DNA from: Sedimentisphaerales bacterium
Lineage (GTDB): Bacteria; Planctomycetota; Phycisphaerae; Sedimentisphaerales; Anaerobacaceae
Length of the DNA stretch: 64,000 bases
Direction: 5' to 3'
NCBI GenBank assembly: GCA_963708075.1
Contig: OY970194.1
Coordinates: forward strand, 5,312,001 to 5,376,000
Shown here: one piece after another, positions 1,564-61,231 of the stretch
Layout of the letters: each line of letters starts with the position of its first letter
Position numbering within the stretch: the stretch's first letter is position 1
Translations under genes and position numbers: made by a program
Notes under the pieces: model-generated
Seen by the model: only the letters and a program-made list of their open reading frames with translations
Databases searched by the model: none
What the model was told of the DNA's origin: nothing

Positions 1564-2877
<1,314 letters not shown>

Positions 2878-3219
2878 TTACACTCAGTCAAGATGTCCCT
2901 GCTCCGCTGCCCGCCGAGGGCGTCACGGGGATGAACGTCATCCAGCGCTCGATCTACACGCTTTGCGTACGCACATCTGCCCAATTTGTTTCCCAAAGGT
3001 CCCCGGATGCCATTCCGCCTGGACATTGTACGATCACAGGAGGACAGCCAATTTCCCACGGTTCCCGTAGTGGTGCTCTGATATACCCAGGCTCAATTCC
3101 TGTCAAGGACAATCGCAGCAAGCAGATCCTCTGGCTTTGTTCGGCCGGGCCGGTCCAGTGCGTGGCGAGGCCATTCCCCGCCTGCGCGGGGACAGGCTCT
3201 GGCCTCGCCTGGCAGGCCA

Positions 3220-3734
3220 AATTGGCTTTGTTTCGCAGACCACGCCCGCCCCCGGCGGGGAGGGGCGGCCCCGGCAATGGGCTTTGTTTCGCGCGGTAGG
3301 CCGAGCGTCGCCACTCGCCCCGGTCGGGCAGGCCGAATTGGCTTTGTTTCACAAGATCATCCACGCGCTCCCCTCCAGCCTGCCGCCTTCCCTCAGCCAA
3401 TTGGCTTTGTTTCGCGCCGGCCTGCCGCACTAGTCTTCTCCAGGTGCCCCATCCCGCCCAAGTTTGGCTTTGTTTCGCAGACCACGCCCGCCCTCGGCGG
3501 GGAGGGACGACCCCGGTAATTGGCTTTGTTTCGCAGAATAGCCCTGGCTCGTAGTGCCGCAAGGCGTTCGTGGCGAGGGCGTCCCACCCTTGTCTTCCGC
3601 CCCGAATTGGCTTTGTTTCATACAATTGGCCATGTGGCTCCCTCGTCCCGGCCGCGGGTCCCGGGGCATATTGGGTTTGTTTCGCATCGCCATCCTCCCC
3701 CCATGTCGGTCCCCGGAATTGGCTTTGTTTCGAA
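3220..3734. repeat. Array of nine 18-nt direct repeats (AATTGGCTTTGTTTCGCA consensus) with variable spacers; no cas genes
   Basis: Repeats start at 3220, 3276, 3336, 3399, 3462, 3518, 3605, 3669, 3717; degenerate copy near 3130. Confidence 0.9.
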
Positions 3735-4028
3735 GAATCGTTCATCCGTCCTCATTCCGTATTCCGCAGTTCCCGGCCCCCCCAACCTCCCGGGACTTAC
3801 GATTCTTGATCTTTGATTTTTGAAGTGTGATTTGATAGTTGGTCATAGGCCCATATACTAGAGACGCTCGCCGAGCCGGATTGTTGCAACAAGTTTCTGT
3901 TAGCTGGTGAAAATAATTACAACCTGTTGTAGCCCGGTGCCATACAGTGCTGTGTTGTCGTGCATCGACCTGGAAGACCCGCCCCTGCCCCGCCCTACCC
4001 CGTGGCAGCCCCCCCGCATGGCGGCGCC

Positions 4029-4138
4029 GTTCGTAGTGACGCCGTAAGGCGTTCCCGTAGCATGGGCGTCCCGCCCATGAATCTCAAATCACGGGCAAAA
4101 TGCCCGTGCTACCATGCCCTTACGGGCACACTACAAAC
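4029..4138. repeat. GTTCGTAGTG-type REP doublet with a second GTAG-REP doublet nested inside
   Basis: GTTCGTAGTGACGCCGTAAGGCGTT ... ATGCCCTTACGGGCACACTACAAAC; uninterrupted copy at 60790-60847, half copy at 32790. Confidence 0.8.
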
Positions 4139-4467
4139 GAGCCGATCCGTCTGCTGCAAACGCCGGTTTTCCTTCACAGACACGCCCCGGCCTTCGGCCG
4201 CAATCAAGACCGCGATAGCCGAAAGAAGCGAAAAGGAGCGAAAAGATCATGTAGGCCGGCCGTCCCCAACTGGGGCAACCGCCAGACGCAGCCGCTTGAA
4301 GGCTGGGCTACAAGGCATACCGTTTTCTTTGCGTCTTCCTTCGCTCTTGTCGGCTCTCCGTTTCATTCCTTCCTCCTGTTCGTCCTTTCGGCTGCCCTTG
4401 TTGAGCCCGCCCGCAGGATGGGCCCGTGACCGACGCCGCTATCTTCCCGAAATTCTCGCCCGCCCGC

Positions 4468-4496
4468 TTGACCCGCCCGGGCGGACAAGTTACAAT
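4468..4496 (+). promoter_or_regulatory. sigma70-type promoter
   Basis: TTGACC-17nt-TACAAT upstream of the 4693 ORF. Confidence 0.6.
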
Positions 4497-4692
4497 CACG
4501 GATGACAGTTGGAGCGAATCGCATGGTGGCAGTGCTGGAGACGGACAATCTCAGGGACTCGCTCGGTACACATGGGGCAATCGTTGGTCCACGCGTCGCG
4601 GGACGGAGTTACAACGGCCCTCTTCAACCTAAACGCGTAACTTAAGGGCCGACCCCCAAAAGTCCCTGGGCGGTAAGAGAAGGGAGATACAC

Positions 4693-5322
4693 ATGGCGAA
4701 ACGGAAGGTCGGAGAGTTGCTTCGGATCAACCTGACGGTTCCACTCTGGTTCATCATCGGTGCGGGTGTGCTCGCCTTTCTTATCAGCTATCTCTGCGCA
4801 GCACAACACCGAGACCAGATCAAGTTTGCAGCCGTTCTCCTCGGTGCCGCCGCCGGGATCTACAGCGCGTACTATGTCGGTGCTGCCCTGCGTTTGCAGC
4901 TTTCAAGAGAGCGCCAGAAGGCAAGCTTCGAGCTGCTCGGCCTGCTGAATCGACCTGAATTCGTCAAAGTGAGAAACTTCCTGGAAAGGGAAGTTGAAGG
5001 GCACGAGAAACTCTCCGCTGAAGAGCTCTACGCCAAGGTCGATGGGAACGATGAACTGGATAACGCTGTAACAGTGGTGATGGACATTCTGGAGGACATG
5101 TCGATAGCGATCCAGAACGACTACGCTGAGGAAGAGATTCTCCGTCTATCTCTGGTGTGTATCGTCGAGCGGAATTGGAATGGTCTGCGTGGCTGGGTCG
5201 AGCAACTTCGCAAGAAGCATGGCGATCAAAGACTGTTTTCGGAACTCCAGAAGCTCGCGACAAGCTGGGAGTCGGGAAAGCGCCTATGCGATGGGCGGGA
5301 ACTCCCAGTGCTTCCCAAGTGA
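4693..5322 (+). CDS. Membrane protein, DUF4760-like
   Basis: Two N-terminal TM helices then RQKASFELL...ILEDMSIAIQND..EEEIL...W..L..WV..LR.....LFSELQKLA..W pattern; AGGGAG RBS. Confidence 0.7.
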   Translation: MAKRKVGELLRINLTVPLWFIIGAGVLAFLISYLCAAQHRDQIKFAAVLLGAAAGIYSAYYVGAALRLQLSRERQKASFELLGLLNRPEFVKVRNFLEREVEGHEKLSAEELYAKVDGNDELDNAVTVVMDILEDMSIAIQNDYAEEEILRLSLVCIVERNWNGLRGWVEQLRKKHGDQRLFSELQKLATSWESGKRLCDGRELPVLPK

Positions 5323-5561
5323 TTGACGTTAGGGCGGGCCCTACCGCGACACTTAATTCAGACTCGCAATGAGTATTGTGCCCCCGGAATCTCCCGTAAC
5401 TTCGCGACGGACTAAGGGCTCCCCCACGTCCCGTTGGCTTTCCTTTTAAACTCGCGCCTCACGTTCGGTGGAATTTGGTATGGTGTCACGGCAATTCACC
5501 GCAATTCCCATAAAGCTTGCCATGCGTGGTCACCATCCTTGGACGTTTCCGCGTGGGGTAG

Positions 5562-5723
5562 TTACTTGCCCTTCTTCCCGCCACGCCCCGTGTCACCGTG
5601 TCCGGGGAGCGGGATGTTTTCCTTTTGCGTCGTCGCCGGCCGCTTGTCGGCTTCTTTCAGCGGAATGAACTTCCCAGTGCGTGAGTCACGCGCGCCTCGT
5701 CGTGCTTGCCGGTCTTTGGCCAT
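5562..5723 (-). CDS. 53-aa small basic protein (below ORF-track cutoff)
   Basis: GAAAGGAG RBS 7 nt upstream; MAKDRQARRGARDSRTGKFIPLKEADKRPATTQKENIPLPGHGDTGRGGKKGK*. Confidence 0.7.
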   Translation of the reverse strand: MAKDRQARRGARDSRTGKFIPLKEADKRPATTQKENIPLPGHGDTGRGGKKGK

Positions 5724-5907
5724 CTGATAGCTCCTTTCTGTTCAATGCAATCCTTACAAGACTCGAATAGACTACCCGATCAGAATGGTCGCCGCAAGGC
5801 AAGACGACGCCATTATCCGGTTTCAACGGGTCTTCGAGGGTCGGGTATCCATATAGGATTCTTGTCAAGTACAAGAATATTCTCTCTGAACCGAAATCTT
5901 TACGGGG

Positions 5908-6084
5908 TCAGGGGCCAGCCCTTAAGTCAAGCGTTAAGGGTGGCGGGGGGTCTTTGAGTTTGGCGGCGATGGTGGCTACCGTGACTTGCAGGCGTTTGTT
6001 TGATTCAAGGGCCTGGGCGAGCTTGCGCAGTTGGAGACTGACGGCCGCCCCGGTGGCGATGCCCAGTATGTGGGCCGCCTGCCG
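5908..6084 (-). pseudogene. C-terminal HTH remnant resembling the tail of REP-associated (Y1/HUH) transposases
   Basis: RQAAHILGIATGAAVSLQLRKLAQALESNKRLQ..., no start codon, ends in a TGACCCC motif. Confidence 0.45.
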
Positions 6085-6231
6085 TTAGGCTTGTGCAGCG
6101 TTTTGAATATCAGTTATGAGACAGGCGGATATTGACTAAGGTGCGGGGGTGCGGTATTCTGGGTGGTTTGCCCGGCGCTTGTGCTGCGCGCTAAGGGGCC
6201 ACTGAAATCAACTATTGTCGAAAGCGTCAGA

Positions 6232-25394: not shown

Positions 25395-26610
25395 TCAGTG
25401 ACTACGCGCCGCCAGCTTTCGTCTGCGGAGCTTCCGTGACGGCTGTTTCGTTGCTCGCTTCGAGACTCGCGGGGGACGTTTGCGGCCTTTGCGCGCGGGG
25501 GCCTTGGGCCGGGCTGCCGTCCGCTTGCCTTTCGTCTTGGCCTTCCTGGCCTTTTGCCTGGCCATTTTCCGCTTCCACGCGGCATGCACTTTTCGCCGTC
25601 GTTCGGGCGGCCACTCGTCGGGCAGGTTCACCCAGGCGAACTCGCCGCCGCACTCGACGGCCCTGTAATCATAGGCTCGGGCCGCCTCGATCTCTTCACC
25701 GAACGACCCAAGCTGGAATTCTTCACCCTTGAAACTGAATCTTGCATACCACCTGCGGCTATTTCGAGCGCGCATGACACCCTTGAACCTCGAAACGCCA
25801 CCCATGCGTTTGGGGCTATTGTGCGCATTCTCCCCGCGTGGGTGCGGTCGGCATTCGGTGGCGGCTTCGGATTCCAGCCGACACAAGAGCGCAACCCAGT
25901 CTTCTTTCGCCCCTACGGGGCTTTGGGATGTGATTGGCTATCGGTACCCACCGTTGAAACGGTGGGCTAGTGTCGATCGCCCCCGTGGGGCGGACGGGCC
26001 GACGCAAGAGGACTGAAGCGAAGTCCAAGCCCGCAGGGCGATAGAGAATAGCCCAGCGATTTATCGCTGGGGAACCGGGGCCGAGGACAAAAGCCAGTCC
26101 CGTAAGGGACGAAAGAGGCGCAGTCCGCACACGGCGGCTGCACGCCGCCACCGAATTCCGACCACCCCCCCCGCGTGTGCAAGCGCGCAGGTTACGCGCG
26201 CAGTTGTCCAGGCGATTACCGTTCCTGTGATCGACGACCATTCCCTTCGGGGGCTGTATGATTTGGTGGTACATGAAGATGGCTCTTCCCTTCTCGTACC
26301 GAGCGGCATATCCGGCACACACTCTCCACTTGTACCGGCTCAGCCGCTCGTAGTCGGCGGCGTCCACATAGGCGTACGGGCCGCCGGATAGGGGGATTCG
26401 CTTGACCGTCTCGTCGGCCGGGTCCGGGGACGGAGGCCTGACCCGATAGTTGCGGCAGACCGTGCCGGGCGGGATCTCCCGCATCAGGCCCGGCGTGTCC
26501 GGGTGGTTGGCACAGACCGGGCGGGCCGGAAAACCTGACGATAGGCTGCGCGTCTATAGACCCCGGTCCCAAAACGCAAAAACGCAGGTGTGACAGCTTG
26601 GCTTTACCAT
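25395..26610 (-). pseudogene. Cys-rich-HNH-AP2 endonuclease, disrupted by a TAG at 26554-26556 and a MITE insertion
   Basis: CHTC...CANHP...CRNY, VDHRNGNRLDN..NLRACT|RGENAHN, SRFKGV, LGSFGEEIEAARAYD; paralog of 62681-63568. Confidence 0.88.
25840..26168. mobile_element. About 330-bp MITE family B (TIR plus multiple internal hairpins)
   Basis: Near-identical to 32822-33150; flanked by duplicated CCCCGCGT; excision restores NLRACTRGENAHN. Confidence 0.9.
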
Positions 26611-32298: not shown

Positions 32299-32709
32299 CA
32301 AGGGTCGGTCGGGCGGTCGCTGGCTCGCGCGAGCGGCCGGAGGAAAGTCCGAGCAGGGCAGGGCACGGTGATGGCTAACAGCCATCGGGGGCAACCCCAG
32401 GGACAGTGCCACAGAAAACACACGGCCGATGGCCCCTCGGGGCTCAGGCAAAGGTGAAATGGTGCGGTAAGAGCGCACCGCGGCGGCGGCGACGTCGCCG
32501 GCAGGGAAAACCCCACCGCCTGCAAGACCAAGCAGCCGGTCAGCGAAAGCTGCACTCGGCCCGGGTGGCGAGCGGCTACGGCCGCTCGGCCGGCGGGTAG
32601 GTTGCTTCCCGCATCGCGGGAGAATCAGTCGGCAACGGCTGGTCCAGATAAATGATCGCCGCCCACCCTCAAGGTGGGAACAGAACTCGGCTTATAGACC
32701 GGCCCTTGG
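32299..32709 (+). ncRNA. rnpB: RNase P RNA (type A)
   Basis: GAGGAAAGTCC, AGTGCCACAGAAA, GGTAAGAGCGCACC, AGATAAATGAT, ACAGAACTCGGCTTA; P1 AAGGGTCGGTC/GACCGGCCCTT; TGnTACAAT at 32245-32253. Confidence 0.96.
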
Positions 32710-32821
32710 GATTTACGATTTACCATTTACGATTTACGATTTGCAGGGCGGCATTCGTGCATCGATTCCGGATCTGGGCCGCCAGGTCTGTTCGTAGTGA
32801 CGCCGTAAGGCGTTCTCCAGG

Positions 32822-33150
32822 GGGTGCGGTCGGCATACGGTGGCGGATTCGGATTGCAGCCGACACAAGAGCGCAGCCCAGTCTTCTTTCGCCCCTACGG
32901 GGCTTTGAGATAGGATTGACTATCGTACCCACCGTTGAAACGGTGGGCTAGTGTCGATCGCCCCCGTGGGGCGGACGGGCCGACGCAAGAGGACTGAAGC
33001 GCAGTCCAAGCCCGGAGGGCGATAGAGAATAGCCCAGCGATTTATCGCTGGGGAACCGGGGCCGAGGACAAAAGCCAGTCCCGTAAGGGACGAAAGAGGC
33101 GCAGTCCGCACACGGCGGCTACACGCCGCCACCGAATTCCGACCACACCC
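32822..33150. mobile_element. 329-bp MITE family B
   Basis: TIR GGGTGCGGTCGG/CCGACCACACCC, perfect 9-bp TSD TTCTCCAGG at 32813-32821 and 33151-33159. Confidence 0.92.
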
Positions 33151-36045: not shown

Positions 36046-36381
36046 AGGTGCGGCCGGCATACGGTGGTGGATTCCGACCACACCCGACGCAAGGACGCGT
36101 CCCCGCTGCCCGTCTTCTGTCGCCCCTGCGGGGCTTGGGATAGGATGGGCTATCGGCACCCACCGTTGAAACGGTGGGCTATTGTCGATCGCCCCCGTGG
36201 GGCGGATGGGCCGACGCAAGAGGACTGGGGCGCAGTCCAAGCCCGCAGGGCGATAGAGAATAGCCCAGCGATTCATCGCTGGGGAATCTGAGCCAAGGAT
36301 AAAAGCCAGTCCCGTAAGGGACGAAAGAGGGGTGGTCGGCACACGGCGGCTATGCGCTGCCGACACATTCCGACCGCGCCC
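36046..36381. mobile_element. Diverged third copy of MITE family B
   Basis: Shares CCCACCGTTGAAACGGTGGG, TAGCCCAGCGAT..ATCGCTGGG and AGTCCCGTAAGGGAC blocks; abuts a family A half-palindrome at 36387. Confidence 0.85.
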
Positions 36382-60735: not shown

Positions 60736-61231
60736 CTTCGCCACATCTGAAGACTCCATAATCCGGGTAGCCGTGGCAAGTGCAGGCGTGTTCGTAGTGT
60801 GCCCGTAAGGGCATACAGAAGTAACGCCTTACGGCGTCACTACGAACGAGGCCTTCGCCCTTGCCGCCACCCGCCGAAGGGATGGCAGAATCGCTGCAGC
60901 GCAAGGATCTCTCCGACCTGCACGCGAGGGGCTAAGCGATTCTGCCAAACAAACCGAATTTCCCGTATGTCCGCCGGGAACTGAGGCTCTGTATCTATGT
61001 CAATAAGGATGAGCGTATATACGGACCAAAGCCGACGGCCGATGGACCGCGGTACGAAACAAACCCAATGTGTCGGGCCCGGGCCACCTCCGTGGGCGGG
61101 ATTTGCCGCTTGCGGCGTGAGGGCGGGCTCGGCTATATAGGGGGGACGTGGCCGGGCCGTTCCCGGCGGAGAACCAGGTACCCCCGAGGCAGGGGGGGCG
61201 ATATAGGGAGACCTTTCTCAGGAGATCGAAC

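Follow-up and report, generated by a model that had tools for sequence, protein, structure and literature searches.

Nine 18-nucleotide repeats in a Sedimentisphaerales genome form the tail of a multi-copy cassette whose gene is missing here

The nine short direct repeats found near the start of the window (the whole stretch of 64,000 nt of DNA that was analysed) form the tail of one copy of an uncharacterised, multi-copy cassette of a planctomycete genus. This copy lacks the gene, and its repeats are not of CRISPR type. The AT-richer flank next to them is the 5' region of this opposite-strand gene cassette, not a leader of the CRISPR type. The 18-mer itself is a putative cis-acting recognition site belonging to the cassette, a site that recombination among copies would have amplified and rearranged; belief and doubt in this reading are about evenly balanced.

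The window array and its cassette

An 18-mer search allowing up to three mismatches located AATTGGCTTTGTTTCGCA nine times on the plus strand between 3220 and 3734, each copy with zero to two mismatches. Including two further weak copies on the minus strand (60943 and 61053, three mismatches each), the window holds 11 such matches, compared with 0.01 expected from shuffles. The periods of the array are 56, 60, 63, 63, 56, 87, 64 and 48 nt and its spacers 38, 42, 45, 45, 38, 69, 46 and 30 nt, exactly as the first-pass annotation had reported for its nine 18-nt repeats. The degenerate copy which it had placed near 3130 was located at 3131-3148, and the AT-richer stretch was also recovered, GC being 0.50 in 3701-4000 against 0.59-0.69 within the array. 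The 18-mer is non-palindromic, differing from its own reverse complement; its sense strand in the window was taken from gene-linked arrays. The features of the locus are as follows.

3220..3734, minus strand: nine 18-mers in an array (sense TGCGAAACAAAGCCAATT), their eight spacers measuring 30-69 nt
3220-3237, 3276-3293, 3336-3353, 3399-3416, 3462-3479, 3518-3535, 3605-3622, 3669-3686 and 3717-3734, minus strand: the nine 18-mer copies (the first number of each pair is the copy start on the plus strand)
3131..3148, minus strand: tenth 18-mer, degenerate and one base short; in the sense of the cassette it lies at the distal, 3' end of the array
3735..3779, minus strand: first module adjoining the cassette leader, with CGGAAT-type heptamers; spacers of the arrays at 482605, 2780351 and 5762229 are of like build
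3780..3794, minus strand: remnant of a ribosome-binding stretch, sense CCCGGGAGGTTGGGG, from comparison with intact genes
3784..3839, minus strand: A-rich heptamer leader, ATCAAAA-type in sense and TTTGAT-type on the plus strand, part of the AT-richer stretch
3840..3947, minus strand: conserved cassette 5' region, containing GAGCGTCTCTAGTATATGG in sense, from alignment to an intact gene
3832..3859, plus strand: sigma-70-like hexamer pair TTGATA-16-TATACT, directed away from the array; consensus match only, 10/12
2954..3745, minus strand: 263-codon open frame MNDSSKQSQF..., spanning the whole array, from ORF translation
2857..6163, no strand: segment absent from two congeners; besides the array and the cassette 5' region it includes hairpin repeats and a DUF4760 gene
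4693-5322: the DUF4760 gene, within the segment 2857..6163

In a complete cassette, a conserved 5' region that includes an A-rich heptamer leader precedes a gene of about 185 codons. The gene is followed by an array in which TGCGAAACAAAGCCAATT occurs between one and a dozen times, with G+C-rich and mostly unrelated spacers in between. All nine gene copies in the genome are followed by a sense array, which begins 40-250 nt past the end of the match. Amongst 27 genes sampled from 20 other species of the genus, 25 have a sense motif copy within 800 nt downstream and none (0/27) has one in the 800 nt upstream; the contigs of the other two end after 265 and 406 nt.

Comparison with these complete cassettes showed that the window array is the 3' part of a minus-strand cassette, a copy in which the 5' region and the array were kept and the gene was lost. 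Positions 3840-3947 align with -300..-193 of the intact gene at 940929 (71% over 109 nt, E 9e-9), and positions 3823-3784 with the stretch of three intact genes that lies at -142 to -104 relative to the ATG (82.5% over 40 nt, E 5e-6); nine flanks with the A-rich leader were also aligned with one another. The conserved 5' region occurs in about 10 copies in the genome, nine of them adjoining arrays, and the same block lies upstream of intact genes. Intact genes carry CCGGAGG-7 nt-ATG, which is absent in the window copy and in its sister copy at 5762229. In the window the ATG after the ribosome-binding remnant is missing and the leader is joined straight to the array. The heads of 21 of the 37 arrays in the genome, that of the window included, fall in one BLAST cluster with gene-bearing heads.

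Two sigma-70-like sites were found in the region, compared with 0.9 +/- 1.1 in shuffles. The consensus scan gave no sigma-70-like promoter match on the minus strand, and the window copy of the cassette may therefore be silent. Four plus-strand hairpin-plus-T-run sites end in a repeat, as would be seen if the array were a row of transcription signals on that strand, either terminators or sigma-54-type promoters. This is the least probable of the explanations considered, since four sites do not differ significantly from the 2.2 +/- 1.5 of shuffled sequence, no rationale is apparent for repeating such a signal up to 13 times in 37 arrays, and the linked gene is read from the opposite strand. The GG and GC elements of the motif resemble the -24 and -12 boxes, but a sigma-54 promoter was rejected, the two lying one base too close for the consensus. 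A hairpin in the 5' flank with by-eye covariation was likewise discarded, as it failed in the gene-linked copies.

The protein encoded by the cassette belongs to a very large, unnamed family of 24,149 clusters at 50% identity and is basic and, by a model of moderate confidence (pLDDT 68), all-helical. It gave no significant match in Pfam, NCBIfam, PHROGs or PADLOC, and a defence-system library returned only an E of 0.038 to an unrelated model. Foldseek against the PDB gave no match at E <= 0.001, and the best E in a PDB sequence search was 0.65, with no significant match to a solved endoribonuclease. VIA-align returned generic helical hairpins only (Z <= 8.7, which is noise for helical proteins), and in the protein atlas the protein falls in unnamed clusters only. 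These profile, sequence and structure searches recognised no nucleic-acid-binding fold or family in it. Peptides that are translated prints of the motif were found in 90 of 102 metagenome homologues with tails of at least 40 aa and in 77 of 119 50%-identity representatives, whereas the same patterns matched the cores 1, 0 and 0 times. On this sequence evidence, the motif travels with the gene family far beyond the genus.

Copy number, spacers and rearrangement of the arrays

Counting the 18-mer genome-wide, as the first-pass annotation had suggested, gave 288 copies in the 7.5-Mb genome (0 for a reversed-motif control) and revealed the co-located gene family. The copies form 56 clusters, 37 of which hold at least three copies, and all of these 37 arrays are co-oriented internally. 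A replication-linked polarity was considered and rejected, the arrays being split 12 plus/7 minus on one replichore and 9/9 on the other. The motif is present in all 23 congeneric genomes, and its copy number ranges from 3 to 692 among the 24 congeners. Gene and motif numbers correlate across these 24 genomes (Spearman 0.66), although the genomes are kin and this is no clean test. In the low-copy species most motif clusters have no detected gene nearby; in G014 just one among the 13 copies listed has such a neighbour.

At E <= 0.01, five of the eight window spacers match nothing else in the genome, in keeping with the earlier description of mostly unique spacers. Spacers 1 and 5 agree at 92%, 48 nt of spacer 6 recur in another array, and spacers 3 and 4 have a single 18-19-nt match each; a 71-nt segment is duplicated inside the array (3222-3292 and 3464-3534, 93%). 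The 232 spacers of the genome are 15-357 nt long. The view that they derive from a few families proved too strong, only 55 being grouped, in 14 families, while 177 have no relative. GTAG-headed hairpins occur as modules in and beside arrays.

Short conserved repeats, mostly unique spacers and one-directional arrays adjoining a conserved flank are what a CRISPR-like or other processed repeat-spacer RNA array storing acquired sequences would display, and it was as CRISPR-like that the first-pass annotation had framed the locus, while holding that it was no classical CRISPR and that no cas gene lay in the window. The former of these two points was borne out, the latter as far as cas1 is concerned, and the framing was not. 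CRISPR direct repeats are usually about 23 nt or longer, but the conserved part here is 18 nt and the spacers vary widely in length. No match to cas1 (PF01867), the sole cas family searched, was found in the single-contig genome, which is 92.8% complete by markers; the profile was positive in 7 of 14 known genomes used as a control. The proposed comparison with phages likewise gave nothing: at E <= 0.01, positions 3100-3960 of this array match none of 50,697 phage records. Predicted folds of the spacers are no more stable than those of shuffled sequences (-16.6 vs -15.5 and -19.9 vs -19.3 kcal/mol), and Rfam gave no match at the gathering score in 2800-4700 and no relevant one in four cassette loci at E <= 0.1. 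Furthermore, the flank is the 5' region of a gene, and between recent paralogues the spacers are as well conserved, in percent identity, as the gene itself. We infer that the array is not one of adaptive immunity, and a processed repeat-spacer array is given very little credence. ARAGORN found no tRNA; a T-arm-like stretch in the cassette 3' element corresponds to none of the genome's 49 tRNA genes, 9 nt being the best shared word, and is a separate genus-wide repeat.

A strain comparison had also been proposed. A 1,379-nt contig of a related strain, from a metagenome assembly (DNA contigs of four runs), covers both flanks of the window locus and carries its blocks in the order 3338-3479, 3220-3335, 3518-3617 and 3605-4052. 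All five block junctions between the two lie at repeats, and the jump from 3130 to 3338 places a full repeat at the site of the degenerate copy (3131-3148). Close paralogue arrays differ by whole modules and never by a bare 18-mer, for which reason motif-only insertion events were rejected. At the level of the locus, the gap between the metY-like and aspS-like genes is about 325-390 nt in two congeners, G005 and G013, in which the window locus is empty, compared with 3.3 kb in the window. A 2-kb cassette at 3262454-3264456 is missing from the same spacer in five of five relatives.

Breakpoints at repeats and exchange of whole modules, together with repeats that follow a constant N-terminal domain within one open frame, might point to a site-specific recombination array of the integron or shufflon kind, with the 18-mer as crossover site, a recombinase encoded elsewhere and modules that vary the C-terminal tail. 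The R64 shufflon, with 19-bp repeats in pilV, has the same layout. However, no recombinase gene lies within the 1.3-2.6-kb homology unit of the cassette, and the cassette protein lacks an invariant tyrosine or serine where a recombinase would need one. Inversion switching is unsupported: in 13 forward-reverse pairs of relatives the inverted segment is open in the gene frame in 3 of 13 and the native one in 13 of 13, and shufflon-type inversion was rejected on the grounds that the inverted form closes the frame in 10. Moreover, duplication or deletion by direct-repeat slippage gives similar block patterns, and the rearranged contig stems from a metagenome assembly. A recombination array of this kind is accordingly judged quite improbable.

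A selfish miniature repeat, that is, an 18-24-nt unit with or without a module that forms a tiny mobile or slippage-prone element, accumulates at any site where it does no harm and is without function for the cell, is unlikely, though less so. The wide range of copy number between congeners and the absence of arrays at orthologous sites would suit it, as would the motif being stop-free in every frame (judged by eye from the sequence) and the clusters of three forward and three reverse copies with pair-specific variants in G014, if these are nested inverted-repeat elements. Such a repeat would be tolerated in a loosely constrained gene tail, the motif being open in all six frames. On the other hand, the modules of this genome are not bounded by terminal inverted repeats or target duplications, such ends are found in no insertion sequence, and the 18-24 nt or so common to the copies are too little for a known transposable unit (single copies have nothing in common beyond about 20 nt). 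The link with the gene family is strict, polar and old. The forward and reverse partners do not covary (17.9 of 28 for own pairs against 18.0 for cross pairs), and a long-range stem between them was rejected on the same count. The sole inverted pair of single copies in this genome (1548510 and 1550669) encloses ordinary frames and has dissimilar ends. The first nine bases of the motif are reminiscent of an IS903-group end, but an insertion-sequence end was dismissed, no element with such ends being found in the genome. In one case, judged by eye, a 78-nt indel relative to a metagenome homologue is bordered by direct repeats of 9-11 nt.

Open frames and conservation of the motif

The reading frame is open through the whole array in all eight intact genes, the tails running for 75-299 codons each (1,590 in all) before the first in-frame stop; the other two frames of these tails contain 34 and 56 stops. 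Seven of the eight terminate in one conserved C-terminal peptide. The readings KQSQF, ETKPI and RNKAN noted previously all occur in the minus-strand translation of the window. Within one open frame the motif is read in two phases, and the third (RNKAN) is avoided, being used by 0 of 31 copies here and by 2 of 169 and 3 of 148 in homologues. Stops in the sense strand of 31 arrays are depleted (330 vs 482 +/- 12 shuffled), while the other strand contains 264 vs 277 +/- 13. That sense stops are depleted, the tails open and two phases used almost exclusively argues that translation of the intact tails matters.

It may be asked whether the tails and the frame 2954-3745 are a real, disordered repeat protein in which the repeats are kept for the peptides AKQSQF and CETKPI. 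The composition of the tails argues otherwise. GC at the three codon positions is 0.68/0.56/0.59 in the tails, which are without codon bias, but 0.71/0.45/0.81 in the gene cores and 0.59/0.42/0.81 in metY. In a genome of 60% G+C, the motif is fixed for codons ending in A at its synonymous sites, the same letters serve two phases in one frame, and only 105 of the 232 periods are divisible by three. In the window the frame lacks the start region of the family, has no Pfam match and, at 0.65/0.59/0.63, lacks the coding signature. Its openness is not beyond chance among gene-less arrays: in 22 such arrays of at least five copies, a stop-free sense frame was found in five and an antisense one in three, near the expectation at low stop density. 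The frame 2954-3745 is probably not a gene, and a repetitive protein as the reason for the array appears more doubtful still than crossover by a distant recombinase.

Conservation at the nucleotide level, as the first-pass annotation had argued from periods that are not all multiples of three, is strongly suggested by a logo of 264 copies. Third positions in the AKQSQ frame are fixed in 260-264 copies, and information is confined to motif positions 1-18 plus a weak 4-5-nt extension, visible as GATTC in sense. Gene-less copies are kept as well as gene-linked ones, with 1.06 mean mismatches in 218 of the former and 1.31 in 48 of the latter. Since synonymous positions are invariant, two phases are used and gene-less copies are equally well kept, the 18-mer appears to be held fixed as nucleic acid. 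The good upkeep of the motif in gene-less arrays could also reflect the youth of these arrays.

Fixation as nucleic acid, together with an association with the gene family that reaches far beyond the genus, is the ground on which the 18-mer is proposed as a cis-acting site. It would serve as a docking site, on DNA or mRNA, for a sequence-specific protein, the simplest candidate being the cassette's own protein supplied in trans from the nine gene-bearing copies. Arrays would grow, shrink and reshuffle via recombination or slippage between copies, and docking might bring about control, spread or maintenance of the cassette. The first-pass annotation had inferred a processed RNA array, a protein-binding scaffold or a recombination-site array; the latter two still fit best, while its CRISPR-like framing falls away. 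The openness of the frame through the array and the avoidance of the RNKAN phase are left unexplained by a docking site. Against it also stand the failure of the searches to recognise a nucleic-acid-binding fold or family in the protein, the spacing without clear helical phase, the motif clusters of low-copy species that have no detected gene nearby, and the minus strand of the window with no promoter match.

A more far-reaching and only tentative proposal is that of a dual-coded signal behind the conserved domain of this family, the 18-nt signal being set in a stretch that has to remain translatable but is not adapted in its codons. Gene and signal would together form a new self-propagating cassette. 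Its protein would dock on its own DNA or mRNA repeats, and amplification in some lineages would leave gene-less, trans-dependent arrays such as that in the window.

Significance and comparison with known systems

The gene-plus-repeat cassette fits no described system, and a full-text literature search returned nothing on the motif, its peptides or such arrays. Repeat finders will report arrays of this type as orphan CRISPRs; they may be told apart by further copies across the genome, by spacers of uneven length and by a gene on the opposite strand. If the repeats are docking or crossover sites, they would offer a small gene a new means of marking, controlling or spreading its own locus, and this would provide a way into a sizeable tract of unannotated protein space in Planctomycetota and, probably, Acidobacteriota.

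With CRISPR arrays, including cas-less orphan arrays, the cassette arrays share short direct repeats, mostly unique spacers, one orientation and one conserved flank. They differ in having only 18 nt conserved, spacers that are not near-constant in length, no cas1 and no phage match, and in that they lie in or behind the open frame of a gene, number 37 per genome and have a gene 5' region as their flank.

The sopC array behind sopB of plasmid F is a binding-site array following the gene of its own binding protein. As there, direct repeats of a single short site regularly stand in a row behind a small gene; gene and site numbers rise together across genomes. Unlike sopC, the spacing here is irregular, no partner NTPase was seen, the repeats lie in an open frame, binding is putative, and there are dozens of chromosomal copies, many of them gene-less. 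The regular, helically phased spacing of partition-site and iteron arrays was not clearly seen (R = 0.14 at 10.5 bp over 228 spacings; the best of the scanned periods gave R = 0.27 at 4.8).

In type III toxin-antitoxin systems, ToxI repeats form an uninterrupted tandem of identical units that precedes the toxin gene. Both there and here a promoter, an array of short repeats and a single small gene make up a unit, and the sense repeat is A-rich, but the repeats here are downstream, have unrelated spacers and lie in an open frame, and the protein model consists of helices only. Rickettsia palindromic elements insert into protein-coding genes and are translated, and they too are nucleotide-level repeats inside open reading frames that are left unbroken. 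The repeats described here are non-palindromic, confined to the 3' tail of one family and arranged in arrays.

Shufflons and integrons resemble the cassettes in having short recombination-site-like repeats behind a constant gene part and modules that vary in number and order. They differ in that here no recombinase lies in or beside the cassette and that modules of 15-170 nt are gene-less. The terminal inverted repeats, target-site duplications and parent element that mark MITEs and insertion-sequence ends were not found here.

REP-type repeats, among them the GTAG-tagged REPs of Di Nocera et al. (2013, PMC3733652), are, like the present repeats, lineage-specific and very abundant, form intergenic clusters and vary in copy number between species, and GTAG-headed hairpins are present in both. 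In contrast to REPs and BIMEs, the 18-mer is non-palindromic, its arrays are one-directional in this genome (mixed in G014), and it is tied to one gene family, in whose reading frame it is maintained.

The window array and its family

The window holds nine plus-strand copies of AATTGGCTTTGTTTCGCA, with 0-2 mismatches each; a shuffled window is expected to give 0.01 matches.

3220, 3276, 3336, 3399, 3462, 3518, 3605, 3669 and 3717 (start positions), plus strand: nine copies of the 18-nt motif

The nine repeats are real, well outside what chance would give. The periods and spacer lengths listed in the first-pass annotation were reproduced exactly, the degenerate copy it placed near 3130 is a tenth motif copy at 3131-3148, and the peptides it had read in three frames, KQSQ(F), ETKPI and RNKAN, all occur in the minus-strand translation. 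Of the eight spacers, five are without a second genomic match; spacers 1 and 5, both lying within a 71-nt duplication, share 92% identity.

Throughout this genome, a single 7.52-Mb contig of 60% G+C, the motif was found 288 times at up to 3 mismatches, compared with 0 for a reversed-motif control. These copies form 56 clusters, 37 of which hold at least three (maximum 13), and the arrays are one-directional without exception. Spacer lengths range from 15 to 357 nt (n = 232), and strict clustering placed 55 spacers in 14 families and left 177 as singletons. A 15-nt core of the motif (at most 1 mismatch) is present in all 23 other genomes of the genus, at 3 to 692 copies, and falls to background outside the family (0-3 copies versus 0-1 for the control). 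A one-letter variant is fixed in some species of the genus.

A second, decayed mini-cluster was noted at 60943-60960 and 61053-61070 on the minus strand (two copies with 3 mismatches apiece, spaced by 110 nt), and the hairpin repeats of 4027-4143 recur behind it. These GTAG-headed, REP-like hairpins (4027-4143 and about 60790-60850) give 7-14 BLAST hits per 30-nt bin genome-wide and also occur as modules within several arrays; in four metagenome runs no other part of the stretch comes close to their contig depth, which sums to as much as 326. The low-copy relative G014 has a symmetric cluster at locus L110 (C90:71000-72500), three forward then three reverse motif copies, whose inner two pairs have private shared variants and resemble nested inverted-repeat insertions.

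A CRISPR-like RNA array, as the first-pass annotation labelled it, is one of five rival explanations. The window array does have the repeat-spacer look of CRISPR arrays, but the label proved wrong. No cas1 was found in the whole genome by a search whose control worked, the array matches no phage sequence and no Rfam family, and its spacers fold into no more structure than shuffles do. Furthermore, only 18 motif positions are informative and the spacers are very unequal.

The cassette gene and its gene-less copies

Several arrays are entered from the opposite strand by a long open frame whose first ~185 codons form a conserved domain. Nine domain copies were found in this genome by tblastn, one of them frameshifted, and all nine are followed by an array 40-250 nt past the end of the match. 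Because the arrays lie in sense orientation behind all nine genes, the sense strand of the motif is TGCGAAACAAAGCCAATT. The domain matched no family in Pfam, NCBIfam, PHROG or PADLOC; a word-indexed search gave 2,732 relatives, those named being all 'hypothetical', and an exhaustive search gave 24,149 representative clusters at E <= 0.001 and 7,325 at 1e-10. The structure model is all-helical (pLDDT 68), with likeness to generic helical hairpins only. Homology among cassette copies runs from ~220 nt before the ATG to the array end plus a ~130-nt 3' element (genome positions 1539499-1539699 and six further copies), which overlaps the gene's last 15 codons and stop and is absent from every other genome of the genus. 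Downstream of this element lies a separate genus-wide ~35-nt repeat, T-arm-like in sequence and outside all tRNA genes.

Within the genus, 22 of 24 genomes have the gene, at 1-21 matches each. Of 27 genes taken from 20 other species, 25 are followed within 800 nt by a sense motif, the contigs of the other two ending after 265 and 406 nt, and none has a motif in the 800 nt before it; in 14, an extra inverted motif precedes the sense one, and the pair reads ELASFG ... CETNPI. Of the 120 top-ranking metagenome homologues, 110 have a recognisable core and 102 have tails of at least 40 aa, 90 of which carry AKQSQ- or CETKPI-like prints, peptides from two reading phases of the motif. For 139 further representatives prints were found in 77 of 119 tails, and core matches for those patterns numbered 1, 0 and 0. 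The gene-motif link is general and polar. Motif number correlates with gene number over the 24 genomes (rho 0.66), which are kin, and the majority of the motif copies listed in G014 do not adjoin a detected gene. Many genomes of the genus (loci L079-L108 among them) also have, besides full-length copies, partial matches covering only the domain's first ~100 residues, at 53-63% identity versus 42-58% for full-length matches; these may represent a shorter sub-family or recurrent truncation.

The flank described earlier as AT-richer is so (GC down to 0.50 at 3701-4000), but it is the cassette 5' region read on the minus strand, in collinear alignment with intact genes: 3947-3840 aligns with -300 to -193 before the ATG (71% over 109 nt, E 9e-9) and 3823-3784 with -142 to -104 (82.5% over 40 nt, E 5e-6). 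About 10 copies of this 5' block exist in the genome, 9 of them beside arrays. In intact genes a heptamer leader rich in A comes after it, then CCGGAGG, then seven bases and the ATG. The window copy retains the ribosome-binding stretch (3780-3794) and lacks the ATG and the entire gene, its leader standing directly against a heptamer-type module and then the array. The array at 5762229 shares this junction, and gene-less cassettes have therefore themselves been copied. In other gene-less arrays a strong TTGACA-17-TAnnAT promoter precedes 13-30 N-terminal codons in degenerate form (read by eye), a unit of which one example is also present in G014. In all, 21 of 37 array heads, including the window's, form one BLAST cluster with gene-bearing heads. 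The window copy is a gene-less cassette with 5' region, leader remnant and nine-and-a-bit repeats, and no 3' element.

The window's 263-codon frame has no coding signature; of 22 gene-less arrays, 5 have an open sense frame and 3 an open antisense frame, and its openness is within what low stop density gives. No sigma-70-like site facing the window array was found, and the lone consensus match (3832-3859) is directed away from it.

Constraint and remodelling

In all 8 intact genes of this genome the frame stays open for 75-299 codons past the domain, across all repeats, and 7 share one C-terminal peptide. Their tails total 1,590 codons, over which the other two sense frames hold 34 and 56 stops, a rate at which an untranslated stretch is expected to close after about 35 codons. 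Forward-reverse segments of relatives keep the gene's frame open in 13 of 13, the other two frames being open in 1 and 3. Over 31 arrays the sense strand has 330 stops versus 482 +/- 12 in dinucleotide shuffles, and the other strand 264 versus 277 +/- 13. The phases AKQSQ, CETKPI and RNKAN are used 24, 7 and 0 times in the intact genes, and 92, 75, 2 and 61, 84, 3 times in the homologue sets. Given these open frames, ribosomes must be able to pass through intact cassettes.

A true repeat protein would be a further explanation of the tails. They are, however, without the genome's codon signature, with GC1/2/3 of 0.68/0.56/0.59 versus 0.71/0.45/0.81 in the domain and 0.59/0.42/0.81 in the neighbouring gene metY. 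As the first-pass annotation had proposed, conservation is at nucleotide level: within the motif, synonymous sites are held fixed at codons ending in A, and identical letters are used in two phases of one frame. The majority of spacers have diverged past recognition while the motif is equally well kept with or without a gene (mean mismatches 1.06 in gene-less arrays, n = 218, versus 1.31 in gene-linked ones, n = 48). Taken together, the fixed synonymous sites, the two phases, the preservation in gene-less arrays and the missing codon signature indicate that the motif is kept as nucleic acid, DNA or RNA. The window array is an orphaned member of a gene-plus-repeat cassette whose double constraints are unusual.

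Close paralogues (85-91% identical) differ by entire motif-bounded modules, their arrays reading AAAA., AAAAAC. and ACACG. in sense order. Window segment 2857-6163 is absent between the same two genes in the congeners G005 and G013, and all 5 relatives compared lack the 2-kb cassette at 3262454-3264456, in a spacer between convergent genes that is otherwise conserved. A 1,379-nt sediment-metagenome contig from another study takes in the flank on either side of the window array (2665-2916 and 3605-4052), and most of its blocks are roughly 92-97% identical to the window. Its modules run 3051-3130, 3338-3479, 3220-3335, 3518-3617 and 3605-4052, with two short novel inserts, and all block junctions are at a repeat. 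The suggested strain comparison thereby revealed array polymorphism, with modules reordered in one assembled contig. Such remodelling at repeats would also fit a rival explanation, a recombinase-site array.

The segment absent from G005 and G013 also holds a DUF4760 gene (PF15956, E 8e-17; phrog_2284, E 3e-8) at 4693-5322 (plus), with the cassette remnant on one side and aspS on the other. At 4468-4496 there is a TTGACC-17-TACAAT site, and a short minus-strand frame at about 5560-5725, in the strain-specific segment, encodes a very basic ~54-aa peptide (read by eye). With cumulative GC skew lowest near 5.15 Mb and highest near 1.40 Mb, the likely replication origin falls some 160 kb from the window. 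Six Acido-Lenti-1 RNA motifs (RF01687) scored 38-45 bits, the gathering score being 37:

26028-26071, minus: Acido-Lenti-1
33009-33052, minus: Acido-Lenti-1
36159-36204, plus: Acido-Lenti-1
36240-36283, minus: Acido-Lenti-1
L043 323-368, plus: Acido-Lenti-1
L043 473-516, minus: Acido-Lenti-1

The four window copies surround the RNase P RNA gene (32301-32710); the two in locus L043 are just upstream of intact cassette 3263542, within the 2-kb segment absent in five relatives.

Putative role and known systems

The 18-mer is a putative cis-acting recognition site of the cassette. In the simplest reading the basic helical protein that the cassette encodes would dock on it, either as DNA or as mRNA; gene-less arrays might be served in trans by the nine copies that have the gene, as non-autonomous elements are by autonomous ones, and arrays may change through recombination or slippage between copies. 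The docking reading is weakened because a binding-fold search of the protein found none, the spacing is without helical phasing, docking explains neither why the frame must be open nor why the third phase is avoided, and the G014 copies mostly stand apart from a detected gene. A purely selfish mini-repeat ranks first among the five rivals, ahead of the recombinase-site array, the true repeat protein, the CRISPR-like RNA array and, last, rows of transcription signals.

A full-text literature search for the motif, its reverse complement and the peptide prints gave nothing relevant, and the gene-plus-repeat cassette is undescribed. The motif was also compared with the sigma-54 consensus and with IS903. 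Single traits are shared with CRISPR, REP/BIME, ToxI, shufflons and others, but all defining features tested failed. Abundance and lineage specificity are common to the motif and REP/BIMEs, among them the GTAG-tagged REPs of PMC3733652. The cassette's order of gene then sites resembles sopC-type arrays. These have their sites placed behind their gene. Rickettsia palindromic elements are repeats tolerated within frames, as the motif is, and ToxI pairs a small gene with a repeat RNA much as the cassette pairs a small gene with repeats. Shufflons and integrons have modules that vary at short sites downstream of a gene part that stays constant, and the cassette's modules likewise vary at short sites past such a part.
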